A stretch of 64,000 nucleotides of DNA, from NCBI GenBank assembly GCA_951812785.1, contig OX638335.1:135630-199629 (forward strand), in the 5' to 3' direction. The position numbers and the translations under genes are program-made. This document shows, in pieces, positions 27,325 through 57,932 of this stretch (within the stretch, counting starts at the first letter, position 1; each line of letters begins with the position of its first letter). The stretch is from an uncultured Gammaproteobacteria bacterium (GTDB lineage Bacteria; Pseudomonadota; Gammaproteobacteria; UBA4575). A model generated the notes under the pieces. The model saw nothing but the letters and a program-made list of their open reading frames with translations. It made no database searches and was not told the DNA's origin.

Positions 27325-28192
27325 ATGCTTAAAAGCATGACCGCGTTTGCGCGTGTCGATGAGAACCATCCAAAGGGTAATTTTGTATGGGAAGTGCGTT
27401 CGATTAATCACCGTTATCTAGAGGTTGGCTTTCGCTTGCCGGAAGAATTGAGGTCATCTGAATTTGACTTGCGCAAGCAAGTACAGAATTTATTGAGCCG
27501 AGGAAAAGTGGATTGCACATTCCGTTTGAAAGCGACTGCAAATTCTGATGTTAACTTAAGCATTAATGAAAAATTGCTCGACAGTTTATTGGAACAAACA
27601 CAAATTTTACGCAAGAAATCACCAGACATCGCTGCGCCTAATCCAGTGGAGTTGCTTAATTGGCCCGGTGTAACAGAACAAGCACAAATTGACCAATCAG
27701 AATTGACTAAAACAGCTAAACAATTATTTGATCGAGCAATTAAGTCGTTAATCAAAAATCGAAAGATGGAAGGTGATCGAATGCGTGAACTGATTGCGCA
27801 ACGTGGTAGTCAATTATAAAGTATTGGTCGCGACTGTTCGGGAATGTCGCCCTGAAGTGTTGTCTGCAATAAGAGCTAAGCTAACGACACGTATAGAAGA
27901 GATGAAGGTAGATATAGACTCCAATCGTTTCGAGCAAGAGTTGGTTATGATTGCGCAGAAGTTGGATGTTGATGAAGAGTTAGATCGTTTGGATAGTCAC
28001 TTAACTGAATTAGAAGATGTATTAGCTAGTAACAAACCGGTAGGACGACGTTTAGATTTTCTTATGCAGGAATTAAACAGGGAAGCGAACACATTGAGTT
28101 CAAAATCGGCTGACATTGTGACAACACAAGCTGCTGTTGATATGAAAGTGAATATTGAGCAGATGCGCGAACAGGTGCAGAATATTGAATGA
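27325..28192 (+). CDS. yicC: YicC-family protein, apparently split by a single-base frameshift near 27800-27830
   Basis: The N-terminal 164 aa (27325-27819) and C-terminal 132 aa (27794-28192) align collinearly to E. coli YicC (ending '...IEQMREQVQNIE'). Confidence 0.8.
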
Positions 28193-28377
28193 TTTTTCTG
28201 ATTGTTTCTAAGTCTTTCATTCCACACTTAAGTCCCATAAATAGGGGCTTTTTTATTTCGCCCTGTTTATAAGTGTCACTCTATGTTTCAAAATAGTGGT
28301 GACATAAAAACGTGCCACCACTGAAAATCAGCTAATTATGGCTTTCTGTCACCACTCATTAGTAAAGAGGGGGCAGC

Positions 28378-29657
28378 ATGGCCGCAAAACTAAACGACAA
28401 ACAAGTTAAATCGCTTCTACGCAAAGGAGAGCCGGGACGTTTCGCCGCTGGTAGCGGGCTTTATTTCCGTGTCAGCAATGAAGGCTCCGGCTTTTAGGTG
28501 GTTCGCTACACTGCCAAAGGTAAGCGCCGCGAGATTACCCTAGAGAAATACCCTAGAGAAATACCCAGAGCTATCGCTGGCGAACGCCGCAGCAGAGACC
28601 GCAAGGTTAAAAGCCGATGTTAAGCAGGGCATTGACCCGCTAGCAGAAAAGAAGCGCCCGGACGGGGTAAAGATTCAAACCGTTAACGACCTGCCCACTG
28701 ATTGGCTCAAGAACGACATAGAGAAACGGCTAAAGCACCCCCGGATTCCCCGCCGAGTTTATGAGAACGACCTGGCCCCCCGCTTCGGTGAGTTATCCCT
28801 AAACCGTGTAAGCCCCCTTGATATACGCCACGCTATTGAGGCCATAGCCGCCGACGGGCGGCCTACCGTTGCCAATGACGCGCTAGGCTACTGTAAGCAA
28901 CTTTTCCGCCACGGCATCCGCTTAGACTTGATTAAATCCAATCCGGCGGACGCTTTCACAGTTCACCATGCGGGCGGAGTCGAACAGAGCCGGAGCCGAG
29001 CGCTATCTATCGACGAGCTAAAAACGGTATTCCAGATATTCCGAGATAACTCCGACCAGTTCACCCGAGAGAACTACCTGGCCGCTGCATTGCTGTTAGT
29101 CCTGGGCGTTTGTAAAGGCGAGCTAATCGCGGCTAAATGGAATGAGTTTAGCGACGACGGCAAGCTGTGGAATATTCCCGAGGAACGTAGCAAAACGGGC
29201 GTAGCTATCACTATCCCGCTTCCTTCCGTTGCTACCGACTGGCTCCAAGAATTGCATATGAGGGCATGTGGTTCGGAGTACGTATTCCCCGCTCGTCGTG
29301 CAAGTAAGCGCCGGGGCTATATCAGTGACGATACGTTAAACCATGTACTGGCTAAGCTCTTTGGTTTAAAGGTGCGCCCTGGGGAGCCACCCGCTAACAA
29401 GCTAAGTGAGGCGGGCATGGAGCACCTTGACTATTCACGACTTACGCCGAACGTGTCGAAGTTTATTAGCGGGTGCGGGTGTTGCCGGTCACGTTGCCGA
29501 GCGCTGCCTTAACCACAAGCTAAAAGGCGTTGAAGGTATTTACGACCGCTACGACTACCTCGACGAACGCCGCGAAGCATTACAAAAAATAGCCGACCAA
29601 CTCGCGCCAGCTATCAACCCTAGATCGAACGTAACTAGCTTTAGAAAGGGGGCTTAA
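28378..29657 (+). pseudogene. int: P4-type tyrosine integrase with three or more lesions
   Basis: N-terminal DUF4102-like 'LYFRVSNEGSGF' is followed by an in-frame TAG at 28495. A 13-bp tandem duplication 'ctagagaaatacc' x2 at 28541-28566 shifts the frame. A further shift near 29400 puts the catalytic C-terminus 'HDLRRT...GVEGIYDRYDY' in a separate frame. Confidence 0.85.
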
Positions 29658-29661
29658 GATC

Positions 29662-30246
29662 ATGGCTATGGATAACGAAACAGGCCGATTATATGAGCCA
29701 TTGTTACACCGTGGCGGAAAGATCATAGAGCGTAAAAATGTTTCTCTAAGCGATTCGGGCCGCTATATGCGCTGGATTGCCGAAACGCTGGCAGATTCAT
29801 TTGACCGCAAGCGCCGCCCTCCGTACCAGCTTCTAATGGAGCTAATCCCTGTGTTAATGGAAGCAGCCGAAAAAGCGGAACTTGCGGACGAATTGCACAG
29901 GCTTAGAGAGAATAACGTAGACTCTACGCGAGCCTTTGAAAAGGCAAAGGACGAAGCGCTTAACTCGTTGCTTTCTGGCTTCGGCTTGATAACACAAAAA
30001 GGTGGCGCAACAGGGAGCGCGGAAAAACAAGAGCGGCAGAGGTCGCCGGCTAGCTGCTTCTTTCTGGGAAGTCATAAAGTTTATGGACGAACTCAAGAAC
30101 GGCAGCGAATCCGGGCTTTCTACTCGGGGAGCAGCAAAGCAAGCCGCCGAAGCCTTCGGGATTGGCGAATCGACGGCCCGCCGCTACTGGACTCAATACG
30201 AAGAACTTCTTTTGCAAAACGAAGAGTAAGAACCACGCTCCTATAA
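29662..30246 (+). CDS. Hypothetical island protein; C-terminal HTH-like segment is in the overlapping +1 frame (30002-30229)
   Basis: ORF track only: a 194-aa ORF and a 75-aa ORF overlap in different frames. They may be one frameshifted gene or two genes. Confidence 0.3.
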   Translation: MAMDNETGRLYEPLLHRGGKIIERKNVSLSDSGRYMRWIAETLADSFDRKRRPPYQLLMELIPVLMEAAEKAELADELHRLRENNVDSTRAFEKAKDEALNSLLSGFGLITQKGGATGSAEKQERQRSPASCFFLGSHKVYGRTQERQRIRAFYSGSSKASRRSLRDWRIDGPPLLDSIRRTSFAKRRVRTTLL

Positions 30247-30329
30247 CTGGCTCAAAAGGTCGTATTTTTTCGAGCCAGCCGCCCCCGCAACAATGAGCAC
30301 CATGTAAGAACAAACAGCATGGTGCAGAA

Positions 30330-30527
30330 ATGAATACACAACAGCAAACCAACCCCGACCGCATTATCGCGCGCGCCCAATTCCGCGAGCTTACTGGTGT
30401 AAGTCGTACTACAGAATATTGCTTAAACCAGGAAGGAAAGCTCCCCGCCCTCGTTGAAGTTAACGGGCGCGTCCTGGGCTACCTAGAATCCGCTTATAAC
30501 GCTTGGCTTAAGCAATATTCAGCTTAA
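30330..30527 (+). CDS. alpA: AlpA-family phage regulatory protein (excisionase-like HTH)
   Basis: 65 aa '..FRELTGVSRTTEYCLNQEGKLPALVEVNGRVLGYLESAYNAWL', the AlpA/Xis HTH pattern. Confidence 0.7.
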   Translation: MNTQQQTNPDRIIARAQFRELTGVSRTTEYCLNQEGKLPALVEVNGRVLGYLESAYNAWLKQYSA

Positions 30528-30576
30528 GGGACGTTGAGCGATTAGCCAAGCTCCGTAACGCCGGGAGAGCGTTCTA

Positions 30577-32157
30577 ATGCAGCAGCTCCCCGAGGCACTA
30601 CAACCACTAGCCGTTTATCCTCAGTTCATACTGTGGAAGTTGGCAGAAAGAAACGGTAAGCGCGTAAAGCTACCCATTGATTATAGAACCGCAGCCGTTG
30701 GCGATGCGCCCGTGTTTACAGCGGCCATAGACAGCCACTTGAGCAGGTGCGACGAGAACCAATAACAAGCGTTACTTATCGCACTGGCCACCAGCTACTA
30801 GCTCCCACTCAGCAGGCCGAACACTTCGCGGGGTGCGTGTATATGCGTGATCGCCACCGGGTATTTACTCCCGACGGTGATCAACTCAACCCTGAACGAT
30901 TTAACGCCACCTATGGCGGCTATAGCTTCATTGTGAGCGAAGACAGCAAGACGACGCGTAAAGCTTGGGAAGCCTTTACCGAGTCACAAACCGTTAGCTA
31001 CCCGTGGGCGCATGGTCCCTGCTTCCGTCCGGAAACGCCAACGGGGGAGATAATCACCGAGGGCGGGCGGCTTGTGAATATCTACGTGCCTGCTCAAGGC
31101 GAGAAAATAGCCGGTGACGTTACGCCGTTCCTAGACCACGTAAAACGAATGCTACCGCAAGAAAGCGACCAAGAAATATTCCTTTCATATTTGGCCGCTT
31201 GCATACAGAAACCCGGCGTTAAATTTCAATGGTGCATTGTAATGCAAGGCGCGGAAGGTAACGGGAAAACCGTTTTTTACCATGTGTTGGCCTATGCCCT
31301 GGGCGAGCGTTACGCACACCTACCGAATGCGGCGGAGATAACCAACCCTTTCAATAGCTGGCTAGAACAAAAGCTAATTATCGGTATTGAGGAGCTACAC
31401 ACGGCGGGCCGCCAAGAAGTGGTCGACACACTTAAGCCAATGATCACCAATAAGCGGATAGAAATACACGGTAAAGGCCAGGACCAGAGAACCGGAGACA
31501 GCCGCGCTAACTTCATTATATTTTCAAACCATTAAGGACGCGGTACTTAAAAGCGAAAACGACCGCCGCTATTGCGTGTTCTATACGGCACAGCAGGAAC
31601 CGGGCGACCTCGAACTTAACGGAATGAACGGCGACTACTTCGCCAGCTTGTACGAGTGGTTAGCGTGTGGCGGCTTCGCCCACGTTGCCCACTACCTAGC
31701 TAGCCGCACCGTAACCGTGGACGTAATGGCCCGCGCTCCTGTTACCAGTAGTACCGCCGAGGCCGTCCGTTCTAGCTTAGGTGTAGCCGAGCAGATTACC
31801 CAAGAAGCTATAGACCTTGAGGAATGGGGATTCCGTGGCGGCCTAATCTGCACCAAAGCAGCCGGGGAGCTACTGAAAGCCAACGGCAAGAAACTAAGCC
31901 CCCAGAAAGTGGCGGGCGTACTGGTAAACCTTGGCTACATCAAACACCCAGCACTGGTGAGCAGTGACGGAAAGGTAAGTATTGACGGAGTTAAGCGCCC
32001 TTTATACGTAAAGCGCGGAAACCTAGCCGCCGGACTGTCTTCCCCTACAGCCGTGGCTGCTACTTGGAAGCGGGCACAGGAGGAAGGGCGCGCGGTTCCA
32101 ACTAGCGGAGCGTTCCGAGCTAGTTCCATCTTCTCGGAACCCCCGAAAGCCCCGTAA
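30577..32157 (+). pseudogene. Prim-Pol/D5-like primase-helicase (P4 alpha-like) split across three frames
   Basis: N-terminal Prim-Pol 'YPQFILWKLAERNGKRVKLPIDYRTAA' (30577-30765). Central helicase Walker A 'QGAEGNGKTVFY' (30747-31535). C-terminal part 31576-32157. Frameshifts lie at ~30750 and ~31535. Confidence 0.7.
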
Positions 32158-32568
32158 TTACTAGCTTTAACTCTCTTTAGTTCCAAGGTTCCAAGTAATT
32201 AATAAATAAGAGAGAGAAGTATAGAGAGAGGGCGTAGCGGCTACCCCTTTGGCGGCTACGGGAAGAACTGGCGGATAAGTGGAACCACTCGGAACCGCAG
32301 TGCAAAAACGGCGGAAGCCCAATAGTGACGGGGCTTGTAGCGGTTCCGTCCCGAGTTAATCAACTCGGAACTTTTAACAAAATATTTAACCCGGCCCAGT
32401 TAGCGGCCAACTAATAAACCGGAGCGGTAAAAAATGACCCCGAAAGAGCAACAAGCATTTTTGAAGATGATTTAAAGACATTGAAGCGATGCGGGCCGAC
32501 GTAGCAGAAATGCAAGTCACCATTAACTCAATGATCGGAGCAAACGACAACAAAGGAGATACGGAATA

Positions 32569-33202
32569 ATGAACAACTTACAGAAGATTCAAAACTTAGC
32601 CGCTAGCGTCCGTGATAGCTTGGCAACCCTGAAACCCTCTAGCGGCCTTGATGACCTCGACGCTATCGCCAAGGAGCGCTCCTTTATTGCGCGAAAAGCT
32701 CGACCTGCTCACCGACGCAGAAAGTACAGAGCGTGAAAAACTCGAAGCAGAAGAGGCCGCCGCCAAAGCAAAACAGCGCCAGGCTCTACTCCTAGATATC
32801 GCGAAGCAAACCGAAGCGGCAGCGATCAACTACCAGGAGCTAACCGACCGCGCCACCTCGATGGTTAGGGAGCTGGTAGCGGTACTGGCTAAACGTGAGC
32901 AGGTATTCAGTCGTCAATCCGTTGGTCTGAATGCGCCGGAAATCCGCGAGCTTTTGAGCCAGGAAGAGCAGAGCGAATTATTGTCGAAGCTAGATAGCTC
33001 GACGGTTGGCGTTTACCCCGGCAATTTTGGTAATAACTGGCGCGAAGCGGTAGCCCTAACCTGTGCAGATAACGCAAACCTACGCCGCGACCTTTACGAG
33101 CTGGTAAAAACCCCCGCTCAATATCAAGACAACCCGCTAGCCGGTGGGCGTCCATTGCTGGCAGACACAGCCCGCAGCCTAGCCGCTAGCGAACCGGCAT
33201 AG
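32569..33202 (+). CDS. Hypothetical coiled-coil island protein; the N-terminal 26 aa are in a different frame from 32648-33202
   Basis: 'MNNLQKIQNLAASVRDSLATLKPSSGLDDLDAIAKER' (frame 1) continues plausibly into '..LLREKLDLLTDAESTEREKLEAEEAAAKAK' (frame 2). Confidence 0.3.
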
Positions 33203-33445
33203 CATACCAAGACCCCCACTATGGCAGCCACACCAGCTCATTCAAGGGGCGACCGCTATCAAGCAGACCTAAGCGCCCCCGGCAAAGTAATTGACCTAAA
33301 CGCCGAGTAACAACCCCGCCCGCTTCGGCGGGTATTAATGGAGACAAGACAATGACAGACCTTAAAGCCAGTAACCCCGCTCTTTACGAATTGGCCCGAC
33401 GCAACGGCGTGACAATGCCCACCAGCAGCACAATACCTGCCAACC

Positions 33446-33975
33446 GTGGAACCTATGACGTTAGACGAGCTTAAGCAGTCATACCCAGGCTTATACGTTG
33501 AATGTATTGCCCTCGGCGTCAATCGTGAAAGAGAGCGCATTCTGACTACGTTACCTGCAAGCGGTAACAGCGCCCGCGAACGCTTTGCCCTTGAGTGCGT
33601 CCGCGATGGTAGCGCCATGACAGAGACCGCAAAAGCTCGCTATCTCGTTATGACTATGGAAGCGGCCCGCAAAGATAACGCCAGCGCCTAGGTAGTAGCC
33701 GCTATCGAAAAGCGCCTGGGGGGTGAGTTATGAATCTTGAACAGCTACTACAAGAATCACCAGAGCTTTACGCGGCCATTGTTGAAGAGGGTATCCGGTT
33801 GGAGCGAGAGCGGGCACTCGCACACCTCGACACGGCTCGGTGGTACGACTCATTGCAGGAAGCAACCGAGGCAATACGGACAGGTGAACCCGCTGAATCA
33901 GACGAAGCGCTAAACCACCATTACGCAGCCGTTGAGGATGAACACGACAAGCTAGGGCGTTTGAGGGTGCGCTAG
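33446..33975 (+). CDS. Two tandem paralogous small ORFs (81 aa each; 33446-33691 and 33730-33975)
   Basis: 'LDELKQSYPGLYVECIALGVNRERERI' versus 'LEQLLQESPELYAAIVEEGIRLERERAL' — similar sequence and length, so a tandem duplication. Confidence 0.3.
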
Positions 33976-34235
33976 TGGACGATCTACAGCCAGACTGTAA
34001 CGAGTACAAAATGGCCTACCTAAGCCGCTTTATGAGTGACCGGGCTATGACAGCTAAAATCCCTGGAGACTTCCAGAGGCGGCAGGTAGCGGAACGGCTA
34101 TGGGGGCAGCGAGCTTGGGCGAAAGGTGCGGGGCGTTTTGTCTACGTGTGTATGCCCGGTACGGCACAGATCGCTAGCTTGAAGCGGCCAGAAATTTCAA
34201 CATCAATATACGGGGAGTTTGCACCGTGCACATAA
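33975..34235 (+). CDS. Hypothetical island protein (86 aa)
   Basis: ORF only. The codon bias fits the high-GC island. Confidence 0.25.
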   Translation: MDDLQPDCNEYKMAYLSRFMSDRAMTAKIPGDFQRRQVAERLWGQRAWAKGAGRFVYVCMPGTAQIASLKRPEISTSIYGEFAPCT

Positions 34236-41977: not shown

Positions 41978-42565
41978 GTGAGAGGTTTCTTGTGTGTGCT
42001 GTGGTTGTTAGTATCCGTAGCACACCCCAGCGTGGAAACAGAACCCGTCACGGTTGAGGTAACGCGAGATACCAGCAAGGTTTATCATTTCAGCATGAGG
42101 TTTGTTGCAAATGCAGCACCCCATCAAGTATTTACTATTATCACTAACTATAATCATCTTTCTGAATTGAACCCGTTGATTAAATCTAGTCGACTATTGC
42201 CATCAAGTTCTCCTACGAATTTCTCTGAAAACTCCCCTAGGATTGATCGTGTTGAGTTGATCACAGAAGGCTGTATGTTATTTTTTTGTAAAAAAGTCAT
42301 TCGTGTAGAAGATGTTAGTGTTAATGAAAATTTAGATATTAAGACAGTGGTAGTGCCTTCGATGAGTGACTTTAAGTCAGGGAATACCAGGTGGACATTC
42401 ACGCCTGACGGAGATAAAACGATAGTTCGTTATACTGCGACTATGCAACCAAGTTTTTGGCTGCCGCCATTTGTAGGTCCATATGCGCTTAAAAAGCAGA
42501 TTCGATCTCAGCTTCAATACACAGCGCATAAAATTAATTTTTTACTCGCTTCTGATGCACACTAA
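41978..42565 (+). CDS. Secreted SRPBCC/START-like hypothetical protein
   Basis: Signal peptide. ~170 aa. Family assignment is tentative. Confidence 0.35.
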   Translation: MRGFLCVLWLLVSVAHPSVETEPVTVEVTRDTSKVYHFSMRFVANAAPHQVFTIITNYNHLSELNPLIKSSRLLPSSSPTNFSENSPRIDRVELITEGCMLFFCKKVIRVEDVSVNENLDIKTVVVPSMSDFKSGNTRWTFTPDGDKTIVRYTATMQPSFWLPPFVGPYALKKQIRSQLQYTAHKINFLLASDAH

Positions 42566-43604
42566 TCTATCATTCGCTGAACGCGTTTTAGCGTGGGCTG
42601 CCGATTATGGGCGTAAGCAATTACCTTGGCAGCAACAACGAACTGCTTATCGCATATGGGTATCGGAAATCATGTTGCAACAGACACAAGTCGATACAGT
42701 TATTCCATACTTTGAAAAGTTTATGCAAGCATTTCCCACAATGAGTGCACTTGCTAAATCAAAGCAAGATGAGGTTTTACATTATTGGTCAGGGTTGGGT
42801 TATTACGCGCGTGCACGTAATTTGCATAAAGCGGCACAATTAATTTGTGATAATTATCAAGGCAAATTTCCAACAAATATTGATGACGTGATAGCACTTC
42901 CAGGCATTGGCCGTTCTACGGCAGGCGCTATTTTGTCGCTTAGCTTTAATCAAAAACATACGATTCTTGATGGCAATGTAAAGAGAGTGTTAGCAAGGCA
43001 TCAGGCAATCGAAGGTTGGCCTGGGAGTACAAAAAATGAAAAATTATTGTGGGTTGTCGCCAGGCAGCAAACTCCTGAAACTAACAATGCACGATACACA
43101 CAAGCAATGATGGATTTAGGAGCAATTTTATGCACAAGATCTAAACCCAACTGTAAGCTATGCCCTGTAAGTAATGATTGCCTCGCGTTAGAGAAGGGCA
43201 GGCAAAATGAATTGCCACATTCAAAGCCTAAAAAGCAAATTCCTATACGTAAAACGGTCATGTTGGCAGTGACCAGTGAGCAGGCTGGATTGTTAATGCA
43301 GCGCCGACCTAATCAAGGAATATGGGGAGGGTTATGGAGTTTTCCTGAGTTTGATAGTGAGGAGAGTGCACTAGACTGGTGTTCAAGAACACTTCAGCAA
43401 GCGCCAAGAAATTATCAGACATTGGATCAAGTTAACCACACTTTCAGTCATTTTCGATTACAAATAACACCTATTTCGATCAAAATTAACACCCCTATAC
43501 ACTGGGTAATGGAAGCAGATGAATGGGTCTGGTATAAACACGGCTCTTCACAAGTGGGTTTGGCTGCACCTGTGAATCAATTGATTAAACAACTAGCAAT
43601 TTAA
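42555..43604 (+). CDS. mutY: Adenine DNA glycosylase
   Basis: HhH-GPD 'LPGIGRSTAGAI', FeS cluster 'C..x6..C..C..x5..C' ('CTRSKPNCKLCPVSNDC'), NUDIX-like C-terminus. Confidence 0.9.
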   Translation: MHTNLSFAERVLAWAADYGRKQLPWQQQRTAYRIWVSEIMLQQTQVDTVIPYFEKFMQAFPTMSALAKSKQDEVLHYWSGLGYYARARNLHKAAQLICDNYQGKFPTNIDDVIALPGIGRSTAGAILSLSFNQKHTILDGNVKRVLARHQAIEGWPGSTKNEKLLWVVARQQTPETNNARYTQAMMDLGAILCTRSKPNCKLCPVSNDCLALEKGRQNELPHSKPKKQIPIRKTVMLAVTSEQAGLLMQRRPNQGIWGGLWSFPEFDSEESALDWCSRTLQQAPRNYQTLDQVNHTFSHFRLQITPISIKINTPIHWVMEADEWVWYKHGSSQVGLAAPVNQLIKQLAI

Positions 43605-44048: not shown

Positions 44049-44124
<76 letters not shown>

Positions 44125-49023: not shown

Positions 49024-50198
49024 TTGGATATAATTTGTTATATGGCAGGTTTTACTAACCATCGTTGGTCTCAAATCTTTGATAAATTAAACAGCAATCC
49101 TAGTAAATTTGGATTACCAGTCCGTAGAAATAAGTCTATTGATCTAGGATCATTTAATGCGCTCAAGCTTGGAGATGTTTCAAATAGCTCAAAAAGATGG
49201 GATTTCCTTACGAGAATAGCTTCAGGATTTGACTTGTTGGCAATTCAAGAGGTTATGGATGATCTTTCTGGTATTCGCCGTCTCCATAAATCTTTAGGTT
49301 CGGGATATAAACTGATTATTTCGGATACCACCGGCGCAGCACCGGGTTCGAGAGGCTTAAAAGAACGTTTGGCTTTTCTTTATCGAACATCTCGGATTGA
49401 GCTAAAAGAACTTGTCTCTGATATCACTTACGATCGCTCAATTATTATTTCTAAGCTCAGAGAAGATATAGATATTTGGAATTCTTTTTTCCAACACATT
49501 GATGATACAAATACTGACAGGGTGAAAAACAAAAGTCACTTGCAGATTTCTCGCTCCCAGAATTTTTAACTTTTATTCGCACTCCTTACTGCGCTTCATT
49601 TTCTATAAAACCAAAAAATAATGCTAAACCGATAGAGTTTCTTGGTGTCACTGCACATACTTTACATGGCAAAAGCAAGAGCGAGCGCACACGTGAATTT
49701 TTTGCATTATTAGAATGGCTAGTACTTAGGGCTAAGTCAGCTAACACAATGTATTTCAAAAATATGATATTGATGGGTGACCCAAATATACGGCTATCTG
49801 ACATTACCCAAACCCTTAATAACTTAAATAGCTCTTTACTCTCGGGTAGAGATGATAGCCAAGTTAATTTCCCATTTTTACATGTTCACCCAGATCAAAG
49901 ATCGCTTTTTGGTACAAATGCCCGAAGCGATGAAACATTTGACCATATTGCTTTCTTTATTGACCGGAATGGACGTCATCTACCATCAACAGGTGACAAT
50001 CGACAAGCAGGTCAACAGGGTCTAAATGACTATGATTTTGGTGTTTTCAATTTTGTTGAACTCATTTCTCAGGCTATTCATAACCTAAGCTTTCACGAGC
50101 TTACAAAGGCTCAGCAAAAGAGTCTTGTCAAAAATACAAAGGCCGACATATCGGACCACTTACCTATATGGGTAAGACTTCCTATTTCTGGGGCCTAA
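49024..50198 (+). CDS. Endonuclease/exonuclease/phosphatase (EEP) family protein, frameshifted at an A-run ~49530
   Basis: N-terminal 'FDLLAIQEV' and C-terminal 'SDHLPIWVRL' EEP motifs. The middle ('NAKPIEFLGVTAHTLHGK') is open in the second frame from 49515. Confidence 0.55.
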
Positions 50199-50329: not shown

Positions 50330-50650
50330 GCTTGGCAAGCAAAACCCGCTGCGCGTTTTGCGTTGCATCATTTCCGGCTTATGGCTTAGTTCGGCATCAA
50401 GCCTTCTTGCGCCAGCTATATCAAATTCCACGTTTACCCAAGTAGTTTGGATAAACATGCAATTCGATATAGAAAAAACTCTCTCGGCGAGGCCAAGGGT
50501 TCCATGCGACAGTGCGCCCTACGGGCTTTGCTTTGCATGGATACCATGCTCTTAATTTTGGATCGCTTCCCGATGGGTCAAGGGGCCGAGTTCTCGCCAA
50601 AGGCTGCGAGCCGCACCAACCCCTTGACCCATCTTGTAGCAAGGAATTTG
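50330..50650. other. GC-rich (~52%), highly self-complementary element within an AT-rich island; candidate structured RNA or relic
   Basis: Perfect 14-bp inverted repeat 'gatgggtcaagggg...ccccttgacccatc' (50581-50632) enclosing two mini-hairpins. Further stems: 'ccatgc...gcatgg' and 'gcaaaac...gttttgc'. No convincing coding frame. Confidence 0.3.
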
Positions 50651-50780
50651 GTTAAATCCCAGATTATTAACCTGAGAATTCTCGAAAATCGTCGATAAAC
50701 CTATGAATTTTATCTATTTTGCGCTACCTTAGCACTCTGTAACATTTATTGTTATCAGCATACAAAGAGTCAAAACTGTT

Positions 50781-51461
50781 ATGGCAAATTTGCTTAAAAC
50801 ATCTACATTTCTTGGCACGCTCAACGAATTTGAAGAAAAACACGCACCCAAAGAGCTTTACTATGAGGGCGATGCAGATCTTTTACATGAAGGCATAAGA
50901 ATTTCTATAGTCGGTTCTAGAAAAGCATCTGACGAAGGCATTCGCCGAGCACGTAGTTTCGCGACTGCATGTGTAAATCATGATATTACAATTGTGAGTG
51001 GTCTCGCCGATGGTATCGACTCTATTGCTCATGAGACTGCGATTGCACAAAGTGGCAAAACGATAGCAGTTTTAGGTACTCCTTTAGACAAAGCTTACCC
51101 GGCTAAAAATAAAGATTTATTAGAGCGCATAAAGAAAGAGCATCTAGCAATTTCACAGTTTCCTATTGGCTACCCCTTCAAAAAAGAAAACTTCCCAAGA
51201 AGAAATAGGACAATGGCCTTAATTTCAGACGCAACGGTGATAATCGAGGCAGGTGAAAAAAGCGGTACTCGTCACCAAGGCTGGGAAGCACTTCGTTTAG
51301 GCCGTCTTGTATTTATCATGAAAAATATAGTAGATGATGAAAACTTAACATGGCCGAAAGAAATGATTGAATATGGCGCACAGGTATTAAGCCGGGATGA
51401 TATGCCTGATGTTTTTTACGACATTCCAAGTTTTACAGCTGGGGCTTCGGTTGCTTTCTGA
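50781..51461 (+). CDS. shosA: DprA/Smf-like SLOG-domain protein (ShosA-like)
   Basis: DprA Rossmann-domain motifs 'IVGSRKAS', 'IVSGLADGIDSIAHETA', 'TIAVLGTPLDKAYP', 'FPRRNRTMALISDATVIIEAGEKSGT'. It lacks the SAM and winged-helix domains of true DprA. Confidence 0.65.
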   Translation: MANLLKTSTFLGTLNEFEEKHAPKELYYEGDADLLHEGIRISIVGSRKASDEGIRRARSFATACVNHDITIVSGLADGIDSIAHETAIAQSGKTIAVLGTPLDKAYPAKNKDLLERIKKEHLAISQFPIGYPFKKENFPRRNRTMALISDATVIIEAGEKSGTRHQGWEALRLGRLVFIMKNIVDDENLTWPKEMIEYGAQVLSRDDMPDVFYDIPSFTAGASVAF

Positions 51462-52098
51462 AATTGAATACGCAACATTTTGTAATTACTCGCCTAGAGG
51501 TACATCAGATTTATCTATTCACTCTAAAAAAGTTTGTGGGGCATTCAAAAACGGCAACATTGACACTTTAAATTCCACACTACCATACTTTAGTCAGCCA
51601 TCTGCTACTATTCTGTCTGCCTTTCTTAATCCACAAATAACATTAGTGCCAGTTCCCAGAAGTGCTCCATTAACAGATGGTGCCTTATGGCCATCTTTAG
51701 TAATAGCAGAATTCTTACAACGAAACGGATATGGACACGAGGTTTTACTTTGTATTAAAAGAAAAACTGCTGTTAGAAAGTCTTCTAGTTCTGCAAGCGG
51801 CAACAGGCCAGAAGTAAGCGAACATTATGAAAGTCTTGAAATAGAGCAACAACTCTTAGTGCCTGATGAGATTACTCTGATTGATGATGTTTTAACTCAA
51901 GGCAGAACAACTATTGCTTGCGCCTTAAGACTTGAAGAAGTTTTTCCAATGACAAAAATTCGAATTTTTGCAATGATGAGAACTCAAGGCTTTAAAGATG
52001 ATATTGACGAAATGGTGGAACCTATTTGCAATATTATAAATTATTATGAACCAAGCGGAAAACATATAGAAAAGACGATTAGCCTCATTGCTTTTTAG
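51397..52098 (+). CDS. shosT: Phosphoribosyltransferase-domain protein (ComF-like PRTase; ShosT-like)
   Basis: PRPP-binding motif 'ITLIDDVLTQGRTTIACA'. N-terminal Cys/His-containing segment. Overlaps the upstream gene by ~50-65 nt. Confidence 0.6.
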   Translation: MICLMFFTTFQVLQLGLRLLSEIEYATFCNYSPRGTSDLSIHSKKVCGAFKNGNIDTLNSTLPYFSQPSATILSAFLNPQITLVPVPRSAPLTDGALWPSLVIAEFLQRNGYGHEVLLCIKRKTAVRKSSSSASGNRPEVSEHYESLEIEQQLLVPDEITLIDDVLTQGRTTIACALRLEEVFPMTKIRIFAMMRTQGFKDDIDEMVEPICNIINYYEPSGKHIEKTISLIAF

Positions 52099-53335
52099 AA
52101 AAATTAGAGAACATAAAAAACATGCTCTTTTGACTATTTAGCTTCAACGTATCGCTTGGTTTAATTGTGTTAGCCTGTCTACGCTTTCCACCTGCTTCTG
52201 TAATAACCTCCATATCTGGGTTCTCAATAATCATTTCATGAATATCATCGCTATGAGCAGGTGTTTTACTATATGCTGTCGCATAAAAATCTTGGACTAA
52301 CAAAGCATCCCCAGATTCCGCAATAAACCTTGGAATATCATCGTATAAGTTTTCTTTAGCAGATTGTCGTGAATCATCATCAAATAAATACAACATGCCT
52401 TCCTCTTTGGGATCGTAAGAAAGCATATGCAAACCTGCGCGACCAAAGTGAGCCTGCGGCAAAGCATTTCTATGAAGAATATCGTTATAAGCTTGTCTTG
52501 CACGATATCTATTTGCAAAATGCATAAACCAGTATCGCCAACCCTTAGGATTCTTAATTGAGAATGGGCTTACATAAGACGCGCAATCTTCTAAATGCAT
52601 ATAAACAATTTTTTCAGCTTCCCCCATCCATTGCTTCTTTTCTAAGAGATTGGCATCAGATAACAAAGCATCAATTTTGGTTTTTACTTCTGGTTCTAGA
52701 GGCACACCAGATGCTTCTTTCTTTTGTGATAGAAATGTAAGCATGCTGCTAATCATGAACGTAAGCAGTATTTCTGCTGAATCCCATGACTTCATAATAT
52801 CTTTTATAATGTCAGTAGAAACAAGTGAATACCCGCATTGATCTAAATTAAAAAGCACATTGCTACATCTAGCAGAAAGCAATTTCTGTTTTACTTGAGG
52901 GTAGAGCAGTTCAAATTTTGAGTTAAAAAACTCTAATTCAACATATAGATTTTCGTTCTCATCTTTGATCGCTGCTAGGAAGGGGGCAGTGTTAGCGCGA
53001 AGCAGTTCTATAGCTTGTTTATTCTCGTCATTTAATATTAGCAAACATTCAATTTGAATAGGACGAATGCCTTGAGATTGCCGATGTAGGTTTATCTCTT
53101 TTGTTGTATTTTTTAAAACATCTAAAAATATAAGTGGTGAACCAAAACTGTTGCACTTATACAATCCCGCGCCACAAAACCCATCTACAATTGCCAATCT
53201 AAATTTTTCTCTCTTTGGCAGTTGGCATCTAATAATTAAGTATTCTCTAAAATATTGCGCAAGAATTTTATGCTTTTTCTTTGTATGATCTTTGAGTTCG
53301 GGACCATGTTCCCAATCATAATTTTTTGTCTCCAT
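52085..53335 (-). CDS. tcmP: Three-Cys-motif partner protein (TcmP-like)
   Basis: 416 aa. Immediately downstream of and co-directional with the three-Cys-motif gene. Family recalled from memory, not confirmed by search. Confidence 0.5.
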   Translation of the reverse strand: METKNYDWEHGPELKDHTKKKHKILAQYFREYLIIRCQLPKREKFRLAIVDGFCGAGLYKCNSFGSPLIFLDVLKNTTKEINLHRQSQGIRPIQIECLLILNDENKQAIELLRANTAPFLAAIKDENENLYVELEFFNSKFELLYPQVKQKLLSARCSNVLFNLDQCGYSLVSTDIIKDIMKSWDSAEILLTFMISSMLTFLSQKKEASGVPLEPEVKTKIDALLSDANLLEKKQWMGEAEKIVYMHLEDCASYVSPFSIKNPKGWRYWFMHFANRYRARQAYNDILHRNALPQAHFGRAGLHMLSYDPKEEGMLYLFDDDSRQSAKENLYDDIPRFIAESGDALLVQDFYATAYSKTPAHSDDIHEMIIENPDMEVITEAGGKRRQANTIKPSDTLKLNSQKSMFFMFSNFSKKQ

Positions 53336-53352
53336 GCTTTGTAGTCCCCCAA

Positions 53353-54168
53353 CTATGCAACACGATTTTCAACTATAGGCATTTCATCCCAAGTTCTCCC
53401 TCTATATTCACGTCCATTCGCTTTTTTAGAACGCTTTTGATTATCTTTGCCCCACGCGCCCCATTGTTTGAAGAAAAAAGCTGTTTTATATTTTAAACAT
53501 TGTCTATGAATTTGATCGATCCATTCTTCTTTTATTGGCCTTGCCTTATATCCACTCTCACCCCCAACAATTGCCCAGTGAATTTTATTAAGATTTACGG
53601 CACTAACTTTATCTATTAGTGGCTCAAAGGAAATAAAACGAATTGCAGCTGGTGTTTTACGTAAACAGTTAATTCTATTCGCAGCATCAGCATTTTCGAC
53701 ACTAGTGCCTAACCATACATTGGGCAGCACCAATTTAATCTTATTTGAGACCAGTTCTTTCATGCGCTCAGGGCGTTTAGTTAGAATCTGGTAGTTATGC
53801 TGCGGTGTTTCTTGCATGACACGCCACACTGATATCACAAACTCATCACTAACTTTCTCATGAAACAGATCACTCATTGAATTCACAAATATTTTGCGAG
53901 GCTTTTTCCACTTATACGGAATCAGTAGTGACGCTTCATCTTCTCTGACAACACCATTCCAAGTGACGTTTCCCCCTTTTTTTTGTGTAAGCCCTTTATA
54001 TTTATTAACCCCCATTGCTTCTAATCTTCGCGCCATCTGCATGGCATAGCAGTGCTTACAACCAGCGCTGGCTAGAGAACAACCTGCTACAGGATTCCAA
54101 GTCGCATCTGTCCATTCAATTTGTGTTTCTGCCATTTTATTCTCAAACGAGCCTACAATTAGACGCAA
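53353..54168 (-). CDS. Three-Cys-motif protein, phage Gp37/Gp68 family (DUF5131)
   Basis: 'WNPVAGCSLASAGCKHCYA' Cys triad near the N-terminus; '...WAIVGGESG...' Gp37/Gp68-like core. Confidence 0.6.
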   Translation of the reverse strand: MRLIVGSFENKMAETQIEWTDATWNPVAGCSLASAGCKHCYAMQMARRLEAMGVNKYKGLTQKKGGNVTWNGVVREDEASLLIPYKWKKPRKIFVNSMSDLFHEKVSDEFVISVWRVMQETPQHNYQILTKRPERMKELVSNKIKLVLPNVWLGTSVENADAANRINCLRKTPAAIRFISFEPLIDKVSAVNLNKIHWAIVGGESGYKARPIKEEWIDQIHRQCLKYKTAFFFKQWGAWGKDNQKRSKKANGREYRGRTWDEMPIVENRVA

Positions 54169-54365: not shown

Positions 54366-54479
54366 TTCATTGCTCTTCTTGAATTTCTGCAATCGTTCAT
54401 TGCGAAGATCTCGTCTTTGAGTAGGTGCAGTGCTAGATTCTTAGCACCACCGCGCTGATTGCCCTGCAAAATCATTTAT
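54366..54479 (-). pseudogene. MobA-type (ColE1 MbeA-like) relaxase, N-terminal 37-aa stub
   Basis: 'MILQGNQRGGAKNLALHLLKDE' parallels the MbeA N-terminus 'MIVKFHARGKGGGSGPVDYLLGKD'. It terminates after 37 codons. Confidence 0.35.
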
Positions 54480-54892
54480 CATCACTCACTTTCAAGCCAA
54501 GAGCCATCAGTAAGGTATCTCGCATAATCAATATGGTTTCATGCGCTTCTTGTAGTTGCCGCTCTGCATCTTGGGAGACATCTAATGTTCCCATGTTCAC
54601 TGATTTTGCGAGTTGATTTAGATTTGAAGAAAGTCGGGATTGCCCCAGCGCAGCTAGCAACGTTGCATACTGCTTTTGTTCAATGTGGGGTTTTCTGTGT
54701 ATACGACGCTTTTGTTCCTTATCTTTGAGTAAGCATTCCCTTATACTATGTACCAAGTGGTTTGTTACCCGCCAATTGTTCTAAATAAGCGCGTTCCTCT
54801 TCGGTAAAGCGAAGACAGAAAGGAGCTGCCCGTTTCTTACTCTTATATGTAGAGTTAGATGCTGAGCGAAATGTGGCATAAACCGCGCTCAT
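54472..54892 (-). pseudogene. mobC: MobC-family mobilisation protein, frameshifted
   Basis: N-terminal 'LRFTEEERAYLEQLAGNKPLG' (one frame) and C-terminal 'HSIRECLL...LSSNLNQLAKSVN' (another frame); both are MobC hallmarks. Confidence 0.55.
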
Positions 54893-56783: not shown

Positions 56784-57932
56784 CTGTAGTAGCTCAGACC
56801 TGATCGTACCGTTACCGGTTATTGATAGGAGTCTGTCAGTTTAGATGTGAGCTAAATTCTTTTCAGCCCAAATCAATTTACCATCCATTAACCTGTCCAT
56901 GGGTATTCTACCACCGCCCATGTTGCCTTGATGAGTGCGTTCATTGTGATCAGTTTCTATCCAGTTGTCTTGATCTTTTGGTCAATCCTCCCTGGTTGAG
57001 TACCGTTTTTTCCTGAAGGTAATTTGATAAAACTCATTCAGAGATGCCATGGGTTTGCGGTGATCAATGTCGTTAATGGCCAGGTATCACGGATCGTCAT
57101 GATGCTCCACGCGCCCACAAGATTCTGTGCCTCTGTCGGTTAAACTACGTAGCATCGGCAAGGCATGCTTTTCAAAAAACGGTAGCACCTCATCAAAGAG
57201 TAGGTCTGCGGCGGTAATCGGCGTCTTAGTCGTGTAGAGTGCCGCAAAGGCGATCTTGCTGTAGGTGTCTACGAACGTTTGCGGGTATAGCCGACCAACA
57301 CCTTTGAGGTGGCCTAAGTCACCAGGATGTGCCGTGTCAATCTCACCACAGGCCTCGTCATCCTGTTTCTCAAGGGCGGCGATCTGTGCATCGCTTAAGA
57401 TAATGCCCTCCTTGGCAATTTCTTCTTCGAGTGCTTTGAGTCGTTTCTTGAAGTGCTCTCGATGATGGCGCAGCCAAACGGAACGCACACCGCTACCAGC
57501 GATCAACACACCTCTCTTACGGAGTTCATTGCTGCTTCGATGTTGCCCAACCGCGGGCTGTTCAATCGCTGACGTAACCCCTGCATGTGCTGTGGGTTCA
57601 TCCACACGGTTTTTAACATCGGCTGTTCTACGACTCTTGTCAATCCGTGAGTCAATGCCACCTTCTTCAACCCGCTGTTGATAACGATAGAATGTGTCTC
57701 GCGACACCCCCATGACTTGACAGGCGCTAGATACGTTGCCCAGTTCTTCTGCTAAGTTAAGCAAGCCCGCCTTGTGTTTAAGGATTGGATTGTTAGTATG
57801 AAGCATGAGAGTTACCTGCCTTTTTGATTTAAAGATTTCAACACCTTTATCAAAACGGGTAACTCTCGCTTTTGCAACCCTTGTGGACTGCTAATTGTCA
57901 GATCGGGTCTGAACTATTACAGTTAATCAATG
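56784..57932 (-). mobile_element. IS481-family insertion sequence, copy 2 (degenerate; internal deletions relative to copy 1)
   Basis: Same ends as copy 1, flanked by 5-bp direct repeat TTAAT. The transposase ORF 57087-57806 (239 aa) lacks segments present in copy 1, and its C-terminus is out of frame. Confidence 0.8.

Follow-up and report, generated by a model that had tools for sequence, protein, structure and literature searches.

The 64,000-nucleotide stretch of contig OX638335.1 analyzed here (the window), from an uncultured Gammaproteobacteria bacterium, encodes on its reverse strand an intact pair of genes for a three-Cys-motif protein of the DUF5131 (Gp37/Gp68) family and for its partner TcmP, the three-Cys-motif partner protein. 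These two genes form a horizontally mobile unit that is complete in itself. Our leading interpretation, which we hold at somewhat less than even confidence, is that the pair is a two-enzyme, S-adenosylmethionine (SAM)-dependent DNA modification module used in conflicts of mobile elements, phages, and hosts. The pair is already listed by PADLOC as the candidate defense system PDC-M30/M41, and the window copy is an ordinary intact member rather than a new kind of system. The pair offers a clean entry point to DUF5131, a large radical SAM subgroup for which no reaction is known. It is carried on clinically relevant elements, such as Pseudomonas aeruginosa pKLC102, and in many defense islands. The copy described here adds one more intact example, and its most useful feature is a tail-to-tail arrangement with a ShosTA-like system.

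The two-gene unit

The DUF5131 gene most likely occupies positions 53353..54135 (-) and encodes 260 amino acids from an ATG at 54135, whereas the open reading frame (ORF) called mechanically extends to a TTG at 54168 (53353..54168, 271 amino acids). The ATG is the probable start because homologs are 260 amino acids long with the N terminus MAETQIEW and because nucleotide alignments of the window with related loci open at 54135-54144. The gene for TcmP lies at 52085..53335 (-) and encodes 416 amino acids. The 17-nucleotide spacer between the two (53336..53352, -) contains a Shine-Dalgarno-like GGGGGA before the TcmP ATG, the spacing is similarly tight in related loci, and the two genes are predicted to form an operon. 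The stop codon of TcmP overlaps the end of a convergent ORF (51397..52098, +) by 14 nucleotides (52085-52098). The first-pass annotation, made from the letters of the window alone, had described this layout and the C-x6-C-x2-C motif of the first protein just as we find them; the 271 amino acids that it gave are those of the ORF as listed, and the protein itself is probably 260 amino acids long.

Profile searches placed both proteins in the families that had been proposed for them. The DUF5131 protein matched Pfam PF07505 along the entire profile (positions 1-243 of 243), scoring 342.7 bits (cutoff, 28.9; E = 1.5e-102), and it also had a weak Pfam match to the related phage family GP88. TcmP matched NCBIfam TIGR04474 over positions 1-262 of 263, scoring 189.7 bits (cutoff, 53; E = 8.8e-56). 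Among the PADLOC models, DUF5131 matched PDC-M41B (2e-102) and PDC-M30B (2e-98), and TcmP matched PDC-M30A (5.1e-25) and, only marginally, the PDC-M41A partner model (2.3e-4). Both component models of PDC-M30 are thus matched by adjacent, codirectional genes in an identical architecture. The two ORFs are uninterrupted, as the first-pass annotation had stated; both are full length and retain every family-invariant column in alignments of 36 to 37 homologs. The PADLOC listing goes beyond that annotation, as do the methyltransferase fold and winged helix of TcmP.

Homologs are numerous. TcmP returned 1,720 at E < 1e-5, the best 120 of which are 57 to 73% identical, and DUF5131 returned more than 8,000, the best 120 of which are 74 to 89% identical. 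Among 1.84 billion cluster representatives, a profile search found 1,839 TcmP clusters at 50% identity. We fetched 86 related loci via TcmP, 82 of them nonredundant. DUF5131 lies immediately upstream of TcmP on the same strand in 85 of the 86, and the exception is at a contig end. At the nucleotide level, homology of the window to these loci is confined to 54144-52106, that is, from the DUF5131 start codon to near the TcmP stop. There is no conserved third gene, as no other gene occurs in more than 8 of the 82 nonredundant loci. Pairwise identities of DUF5131 and TcmP correlate (r = 0.67), and nine loci have a swapped DUF5131 subtype that is ∼50% identical. The pair is under purifying selection, with nonsynonymous divergence (pN) of 0.10 to 0.22 against a saturated synonymous divergence (pS) of 0.79 to 0.92. 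Homology thus ends with the two ORFs and extends to no third gene; together with the correlated identities and a pN far below pS, this makes exactly DUF5131 plus TcmP the unit of transfer and selection, which moves horizontally as two genes.

A housekeeping role was considered and rejected, given the patchy distribution, the unrelated contexts, and the end of homology at the ORF ends. The window copy itself has no close nucleotide relative: the best is only 72% identical, a megablast of plasmids with the window gave no match, and the exact window protein had no record in the contig index searched.

Predicted enzymes

DUF5131 is probably a radical SAM protein. RadicalSAM.org places it in Megacluster-5-2, between the MJ0683-like proteins (5-1) and spore photoproduct lyase (5-3), and gives no function. 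The Cys triad C19-x6-C26-x2-C29 (CSLASAGCKHC; 54049..54081, -), read from the sequence, presumably supplies the ligands of a [4Fe-4S] cluster. In an alignment of 36 homologs, C19, C26, C29, and C213 are invariant, as are all five columns of GGESG (G191, G192, E193, S194, and G195; 53551..53565, -), which we take to correspond to the “GGE” motif with which radical SAM enzymes bind SAM. In the AlphaFold2 (AF2) model (pLDDT 78.7), the Cys loop is followed by six beta-alpha units, suggestive of a partial TIM barrel. Its top match in the Protein Data Bank (PDB) is spore photoproduct lyase, which is weak (E = 0.043, TMq of 0.47, 10% identity), followed by NifB, MiaB, and viperin, interspersed with ordinary TIM barrels. 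Residues 88-234 also match TIGR04471 in part (E = 3.4e-21), at 75.8 bits, far below the cutoff of 355, so that the protein is not a member of that family. The megacluster listing, the partial TIGR04471 match, the invariant Cys triad and GGESG, and the spore photoproduct lyase match together argue for the radical SAM assignment, and they fit the earlier suggestion of an iron-sulfur or radical enzyme.

Two relatives help to frame this assignment. Spore photoproduct lyase (PDB 4FHC) is the best solved structural match and belongs to a neighboring Megacluster-5 subgroup, and it acts on DNA; it differs in having the canonical C-x3-C-x2-C motif, in lacking a TcmP partner, and in not being mobile. 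Radical SAM mobile pair protein A (TIGR04471) shares a homologous core with DUF5131 and is likewise half of a mobile two-gene pair. Its partner is probably a second radical SAM protein and not a protein of methyltransferase fold.

TcmP is predicted to be a methyltransferase-like protein with a DNA-binding domain. Its AF2 model (pLDDT 80.5) has the strand order of a class I methyltransferase followed by a winged helix. The SAM-methyltransferase-like Rossmann domain covers approximately residues 44-274 (52514..53206, -) in the order b1-aA-b2-aB-b3-aC-b4-aD-b5 ... b6-b7. Foldseek matched the model to SAM methyltransferases in the PDB (E = 7.9e-05 to 4.6e-04; probability 0.97 to 1.00) at TM scores of 0.3 to 0.4, and these included histamine N-methyltransferase (7.9e-05), xanthosine methyltransferase, LCMT1, and the vaccinia cap methyltransferase. 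In addition to the seven-strand Rossmann-like fold of the model, the sequence has the other class I features: a motif I-like D51-G-F-C-G-A-G57 after strand b1 (53165..53185, -), whose F53, G55, and G57 do not vary within the close clade; an acidic residue, D103, following b2; and a motif IV-like F162-N-L-D165-Q-C-G168-Y after strand b4 (52829..52852, -), in which FNLDQ is invariant in the clade. Among TcmPs at 16 to 19% identity, K21, L25, Y28, D51 and G55 of motif I, and D165 and G168 of motif IV remain invariant; most TcmPs have “DPxG” in motif IV, compared to “DQCG” in the window protein. The C-terminal GMT-wHTH winged helix (PF22560; approximately residues 306-400; 52136..52420, -) has the order H-b-H-H-b-b in the model. 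Its match in the window protein scores 29.2 bits (cutoff, 27; E = 1.3e-06), and all 37 aligned homologs match it as well.

On the interpretation that we favor, DUF5131 would hold a [4Fe-4S] cluster in its unusual C-x6-C-x2-C site, cleave SAM to a 5′-deoxyadenosyl radical, and perform the radical step. TcmP would recognize the target, most likely binding DNA through its winged helix, and would supply or prepare methyl-type SAM chemistry. Together they would leave the DNA of the carrier cell or element covalently marked. The mark would either identify the DNA as self to a nuclease, linked or unlinked, or act as a shield by itself. DNA is the probable substrate because of the winged helix, the coupling of some pairs to an Mrr-type nuclease, the replication context of solo phage DUF5131 genes, and the nearest fold being that of spore photoproduct lyase.

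Genomic contexts and candidate functions

The first-pass annotation had raised nucleic acid modification or a part in defense and counterdefense, and had named a housekeeping setting as the finding that would speak against it. The neighbors of the pair are instead conjugative-element, anti-restriction, and named defense genes. These neighborhoods fit the proposal; the role itself is a matter of interpretation. On a mobilizable element (L001) the pair adjoins ArdA, toxin-antitoxin pairs, a relaxase, and a coupling protein, and in eight loci it adjoins ArdC, a ParB-like protein, HipAB, and type IV secretion system (T4SS) genes. In the P. aeruginosa integrative and conjugative element (ICE)/plasmid pKLC102 (L092; 27105-29173 of the record) it lies between topA/DEAD-box helicase and type IVb pilus genes, which may explain the commonness of PDC-M30 in P. 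aeruginosa strains. Of the TcmP-bearing plasmids, 30 of 64 were typed as conjugative. Two loci (L004 and L005) carry the pair as a lone insert amid housekeeping genes.

Neighbors up to 3.5 kb away from the pair, 145 distinct gene clusters in all, were scanned with PADLOC. Strong matches were obtained to Hachiman, Pycsar, Lamassu, Gabija, DRT5, SIR2-HerA, SIR2 pAgo, Tiamat, Shango, and type IIG and type III restriction-modification (R-M) systems, and further matches were to integrases, Mrr_cat, SIR2_2, and PIN domains. One locus places the pair beside PLD-SNF2 and an Eco57I-type methylase, a DISARM-like pair, and CBASS lies beside it in an Agrobacterium plasmid (L093). Toxin-antitoxin and abortive-infection neighbors in various loci are RelBE, HipAB, PemK/Phd, and Abi_2. 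ShosTA was found in none of the 86 other loci.

DUF5131 occurs in 181 of ∼50,700 phage records. In temperate Gordonia phages (Easley gp38/gp39 and Jablanski gp42/gp43) the pair is convergent and has the integrase on one side and the immunity repressor on the other, a position usual for prophage-expressed cargo. The TcmP of Gordonia phages (187 bits, TIGR04474) is annotated “methyltransferase” by actinophage annotators. Synechococcus phage Ssp-JY39 encodes DUF5131 and a convergent 305-amino-acid TcmP (216 bits) that lacks the winged helix. These phage pairs belong to the same two families as the pair in the window, with DUF5131 proteins 47 to 59% identical to it, but they are convergent rather than tandem, their TcmPs are 305 to 371 amino acids long and 16 to 19% identical, and they lie in the lysogeny/immunity region. 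Solo DUF5131 genes of phages are longer and sit in early replication modules beside a single-stranded DNA-binding protein (SSB), a replication initiator, a ribonucleotide reductase (RNR), or a dNMP phosphatase. In two Gordonia phages and one Agrobacterium plasmid, a helix-turn-helix (HTH) protein and an ImmA/IrrE-type peptidase are encoded just upstream of DUF5131 (L087, 3185-3990; L089, 2700-3334; L093, 3795-5032, there also abutting CBASS); this second pair is possibly a damage-responsive regulator.

Variant loci bear on mechanism. In five loci (L051, 9171-12210; L055; L063; L078; L081) a three-gene cassette, DUF5131-TcmP-Mrr_cat, has a 4-nucleotide overlap of the TcmP stop with the start of the Mrr-type nuclease, so that the two are translationally coupled. 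The mutual homology of L051, L078, and L081 covers exactly these three genes, which therefore move together. Two loci (L012, 8112-11251; L018, 7916-11233) contain one DUF5131 that two different TcmP paralogs flank or follow, one of the canonical “DPxG” type (375 to 389 amino acids) and one of the window type, an arrangement consistent with TcmP being the partner that confers targeting or specificity. In L075 (7724-10954) the insertion of an IS630-like transposase splits TcmP at about residue 100 and leaves the upstream DUF5131 intact, which argues against lethality of DUF5131 without TcmP. In L055 (9185-11257) the two genes form a single 690-amino-acid in-frame ORF, possibly a natural fusion or possibly an assembly error; the contig name gives ∼3× coverage. 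A TcmP cluster representative of 696 amino acids (P0244) carries a C-terminal extension of ∼285 amino acids; this was considered as an Mrr_cat domain and rejected, having no similarity to the Mrr_cat protein.

The function of the pair had been called uncharacterized, and this holds for the literature searched. Within it, DUF5131 is named in a single paper, the one with the megacluster listing, and TcmP in gene tables only, one of which, for Sinorhizobium meliloti, groups tcmP and the defense gene hna as a putative transcription unit. A survey of P. aeruginosa found PDC-M30 in 32 strains, 68.8% of which were phage resistant, a weak correlation. The main text of the PDC preprint makes no mention of M30, M41, DUF5131, or radical SAM.

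Comparison with characterized systems sharpens the DNA modification proposal. Like R-M systems and orphan DNA methyltransferases, the pair combines a SAM-methyltransferase fold with a DNA-binding domain and is found on mobile elements and in defense islands. A subset of loci also shares with R-M systems a translationally coupled nuclease, here of Mrr type. The pair differs from these systems in having an obligatory radical SAM partner, no nuclease in the window or in most loci, and no match to a known DNA methyltransferase family. The requirement for an Fe-S enzyme parallels Dnd in Dnd/Ssp phosphorothioation. In a bolder form of the proposal, possible though unlikely in our judgment, the pair would write a new radical-SAM-dependent DNA mark as the “M” half of an R-M-like immunity, with Mrr-type or unlinked nucleases reading the mark and interchangeable TcmPs setting specificity. 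Such a mark would be new chemistry for bacterial epigenetics and new logic for phage defense or anti-restriction, and a base-modifying tool might follow.

Several observations weigh against a SAM-dependent DNA modification module. The Cys spacing of DUF5131 is C-x6-C-x2-C and not the canonical radical SAM C-x3-C-x2-C, although accepted radical SAM members with noncanonical spacing exist. The Radical_SAM Pfam model had no match to DUF5131 even at E ≤ 5 when all members of the alignment were scanned, and methyltransferase Pfam families, including known DNA methyltransferases, had none at E ≤ 5 among 37 TcmP members. The structural matches of both models are weak (TM of 0.47 at best for DUF5131), and neither single-protein nor profile searches found useful sequence relatives of the two proteins in the PDB. 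In the window the pair has no coupled nuclease or other effector: the gene downstream of TcmP is the convergent ShosT, and no Mrr_cat homolog was found. In 62 of 79 loci, too, no such gene is coupled, so that the two-gene form gives no demonstration of a restriction-like logic. The PADLOC neighbor count was made without a formal distant-gene control, and the literature searched contained no functional study of DUF5131, TcmP, or PDC-M30/M41. In the window itself, a promoter scan gave fewer sites than shuffled sequences and no consensus promoter upstream of the operon, and the genome is decaying.

The alternative that survives best, which we judge doubtful but worth serious attention, is that the pair acts in counterdefense or establishment, modifying the DNA of its own element or incoming DNA against the restriction of the recipient, as orphan methyltransferases and Ard proteins do. 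It accords with ArdA beside the pair on the mobilizable element, with ArdC and the ParB-like protein on T4SS elements in eight loci, with the place of the pair in the conjugative pKLC102 backbone and the 30 of 64 conjugative plasmids, with the weakly matched MobC remnant upstream of the window copy, and with the lack of a coupled nuclease in most loci. Adjacency to Ard genes is not specific, however, because mobile elements carry defense systems in the same hotspots. The lone inserts amid housekeeping genes also speak against it, as does the presence of the pair inside defense islands and in the immunity regions of prophages, both of them usual places for cargo that protects the host, and the variant coupled to Mrr_cat resembles restriction rather than anti-restriction. 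Host defense and the shielding of a mobile element cannot be separated from sequence: the Ard and ICE contexts favor shielding, and the prophage immunity regions, defense islands, and nuclease-coupled variant favor defense.

It is improbable that the pair works instead as an abortive-infection or toxin-like system, in which DUF5131 would damage nucleic acid as a radical-based effector, with TcmP sensing, regulating, or neutralizing it, and no stable self-mark would be made. Toxin-antitoxin and abortive-infection modules are likewise tightly coupled, selfishly mobile two-gene cassettes; ShosTA, RelBE, HipAB, PemK/Phd, and Abi_2 are among the neighbors in various loci; and the nearest solved fold of DUF5131 acts on DNA by radical chemistry. 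We rate this explanation down because L075 retains an intact DUF5131 beside a split TcmP and because phages carry solo DUF5131 genes. Moreover, TcmP keeps catalytic-type methyltransferase motifs at 16 to 19% identity, which a mere antidote would not need.

Less probable again is a substrate other than DNA, such as RNA (tRNA or rRNA), a nucleotide, or a small molecule; the pair might, for example, modify tRNA and so tune translation or block anticodon nucleases. The top Foldseek matches of TcmP are small-molecule and cap methyltransferases, its motif IV (DPxG/DQCG) presumably resembles that of the tRNA guanine-N2 methyltransferase Trm1, and many combinations of radical SAM and methyltransferase enzymes act on tRNA. 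The winged helix, the coupling to an Mrr-type nuclease, and the replication module context of solo DUF5131 genes point to DNA, however, and both the nearest fold and the nearest radical SAM subgroup are those of a DNA enzyme, spore photoproduct lyase. Least probable of all is that the pair is a silent passenger in this genome, decaying and intact through recent acquisition rather than present selection: the surrounding genes are fragmented, ShosA covers part of its model only, no consensus promoter lies upstream, and the best nucleotide relative is distant, but both ORFs are full length with family-invariant residues and the Shine-Dalgarno-like site retained, and the idea concerns activity in the source host only and is compatible with any proposed mechanism.

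Surroundings of the pair in the window

The convergent neighbor at 51397..52098 (+) had been called a phosphoribosyltransferase gene in the first-pass annotation. It is more exactly a ShosT-like phosphoribosyltransferase (PADLOC ShosT, 7.3e-24), which has no Pfam or NCBIfam match, and it has a partner that was missed, a ShosA-like DprA/SLOG protein of 226 amino acids at 50781..51461 (+) (PADLOC ShosA, 4.1e-74; Pfam DNA_processg_A, 1.5e-56). The two ORFs as listed overlap by 65 nucleotides. The ShosA ORF spans only positions 95-287 of the 303 in the model, no N-terminal third was readable upstream of 50781, and the system in the window may be truncated or a short variant. ShosTA has been shown experimentally to be a toxin-antitoxin phage defense system (PMC11961720, PMC12961424); it is a separate system beside the DUF5131-TcmP pair and not part of it. 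From the identities of the ShosA-like and ShosT-like proteins, the pair thus stands tail-to-tail with a known defense system in a small defense island downstream of a tRNA-Phe gene.

This tRNA-Phe gene (44049..44124, +; ARAGORN and Rfam) is a possible integration site of the island that holds the pair. A search of the window found no attR repeat of the tRNA 3′ end, so the limits of the island are not defined. Upstream of the pair and codirectional with it, a small ORF at 54472..54756 (-) has a weak match to MobC (Pfam E = 5.9e-4; 20.7 bits, under the cutoff of 23.2) and might be the remnant of a mobilizable element. The context of the pair in the window is mobile and defensive and not housekeeping.

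The statement that the pair lies amid many pseudogenes is plausible, and spot checks support it to the extent of a split EEP-like gene, a truncated transposase at 57087-57806, a fragmented P4-like element, and the partial ShosA. The split gene is represented by two consecutive ORFs (181 and 149 amino acids) at 49024-50198 that resemble halves of one EEP-like gene, an apparent pseudogene. The second ORF ends in a DHLPIWVRLP-type motif, which we take to be that of endonuclease/exonuclease/phosphatase enzymes, and neither ORF had a Pfam or PADLOC match. The region from 28000 to 34000 has a raised GC content of 0.50 to 0.53, a strong positive AT skew, no rRNA, and fragmented ORFs; it includes a piece of a tyrosine integrase (28928-29512) and a piece of a P4-type primase-helicase with a P-loop (30747-31535), and it looks like a degraded foreign integrative element of P4-like type.

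Between the split EEP-like gene and ShosA, positions 50460-50680 form a strongly structured, GC-richer noncoding stretch. Its RNA fold has a z score of -3.95 on the + strand and -4.93 on the - strand, with none of 200 shuffled sequences equally stable, and it includes a long hairpin (GGGTCAAGGGG...CCCCTTGACCC); Rfam gave no match even at E ≤ 1. Just upstream of the tRNA-Phe gene, a 373-amino-acid ORF at 42483-43604 matched the PADLOC model “Type II nicking endonuclease” at 1.6e-29.

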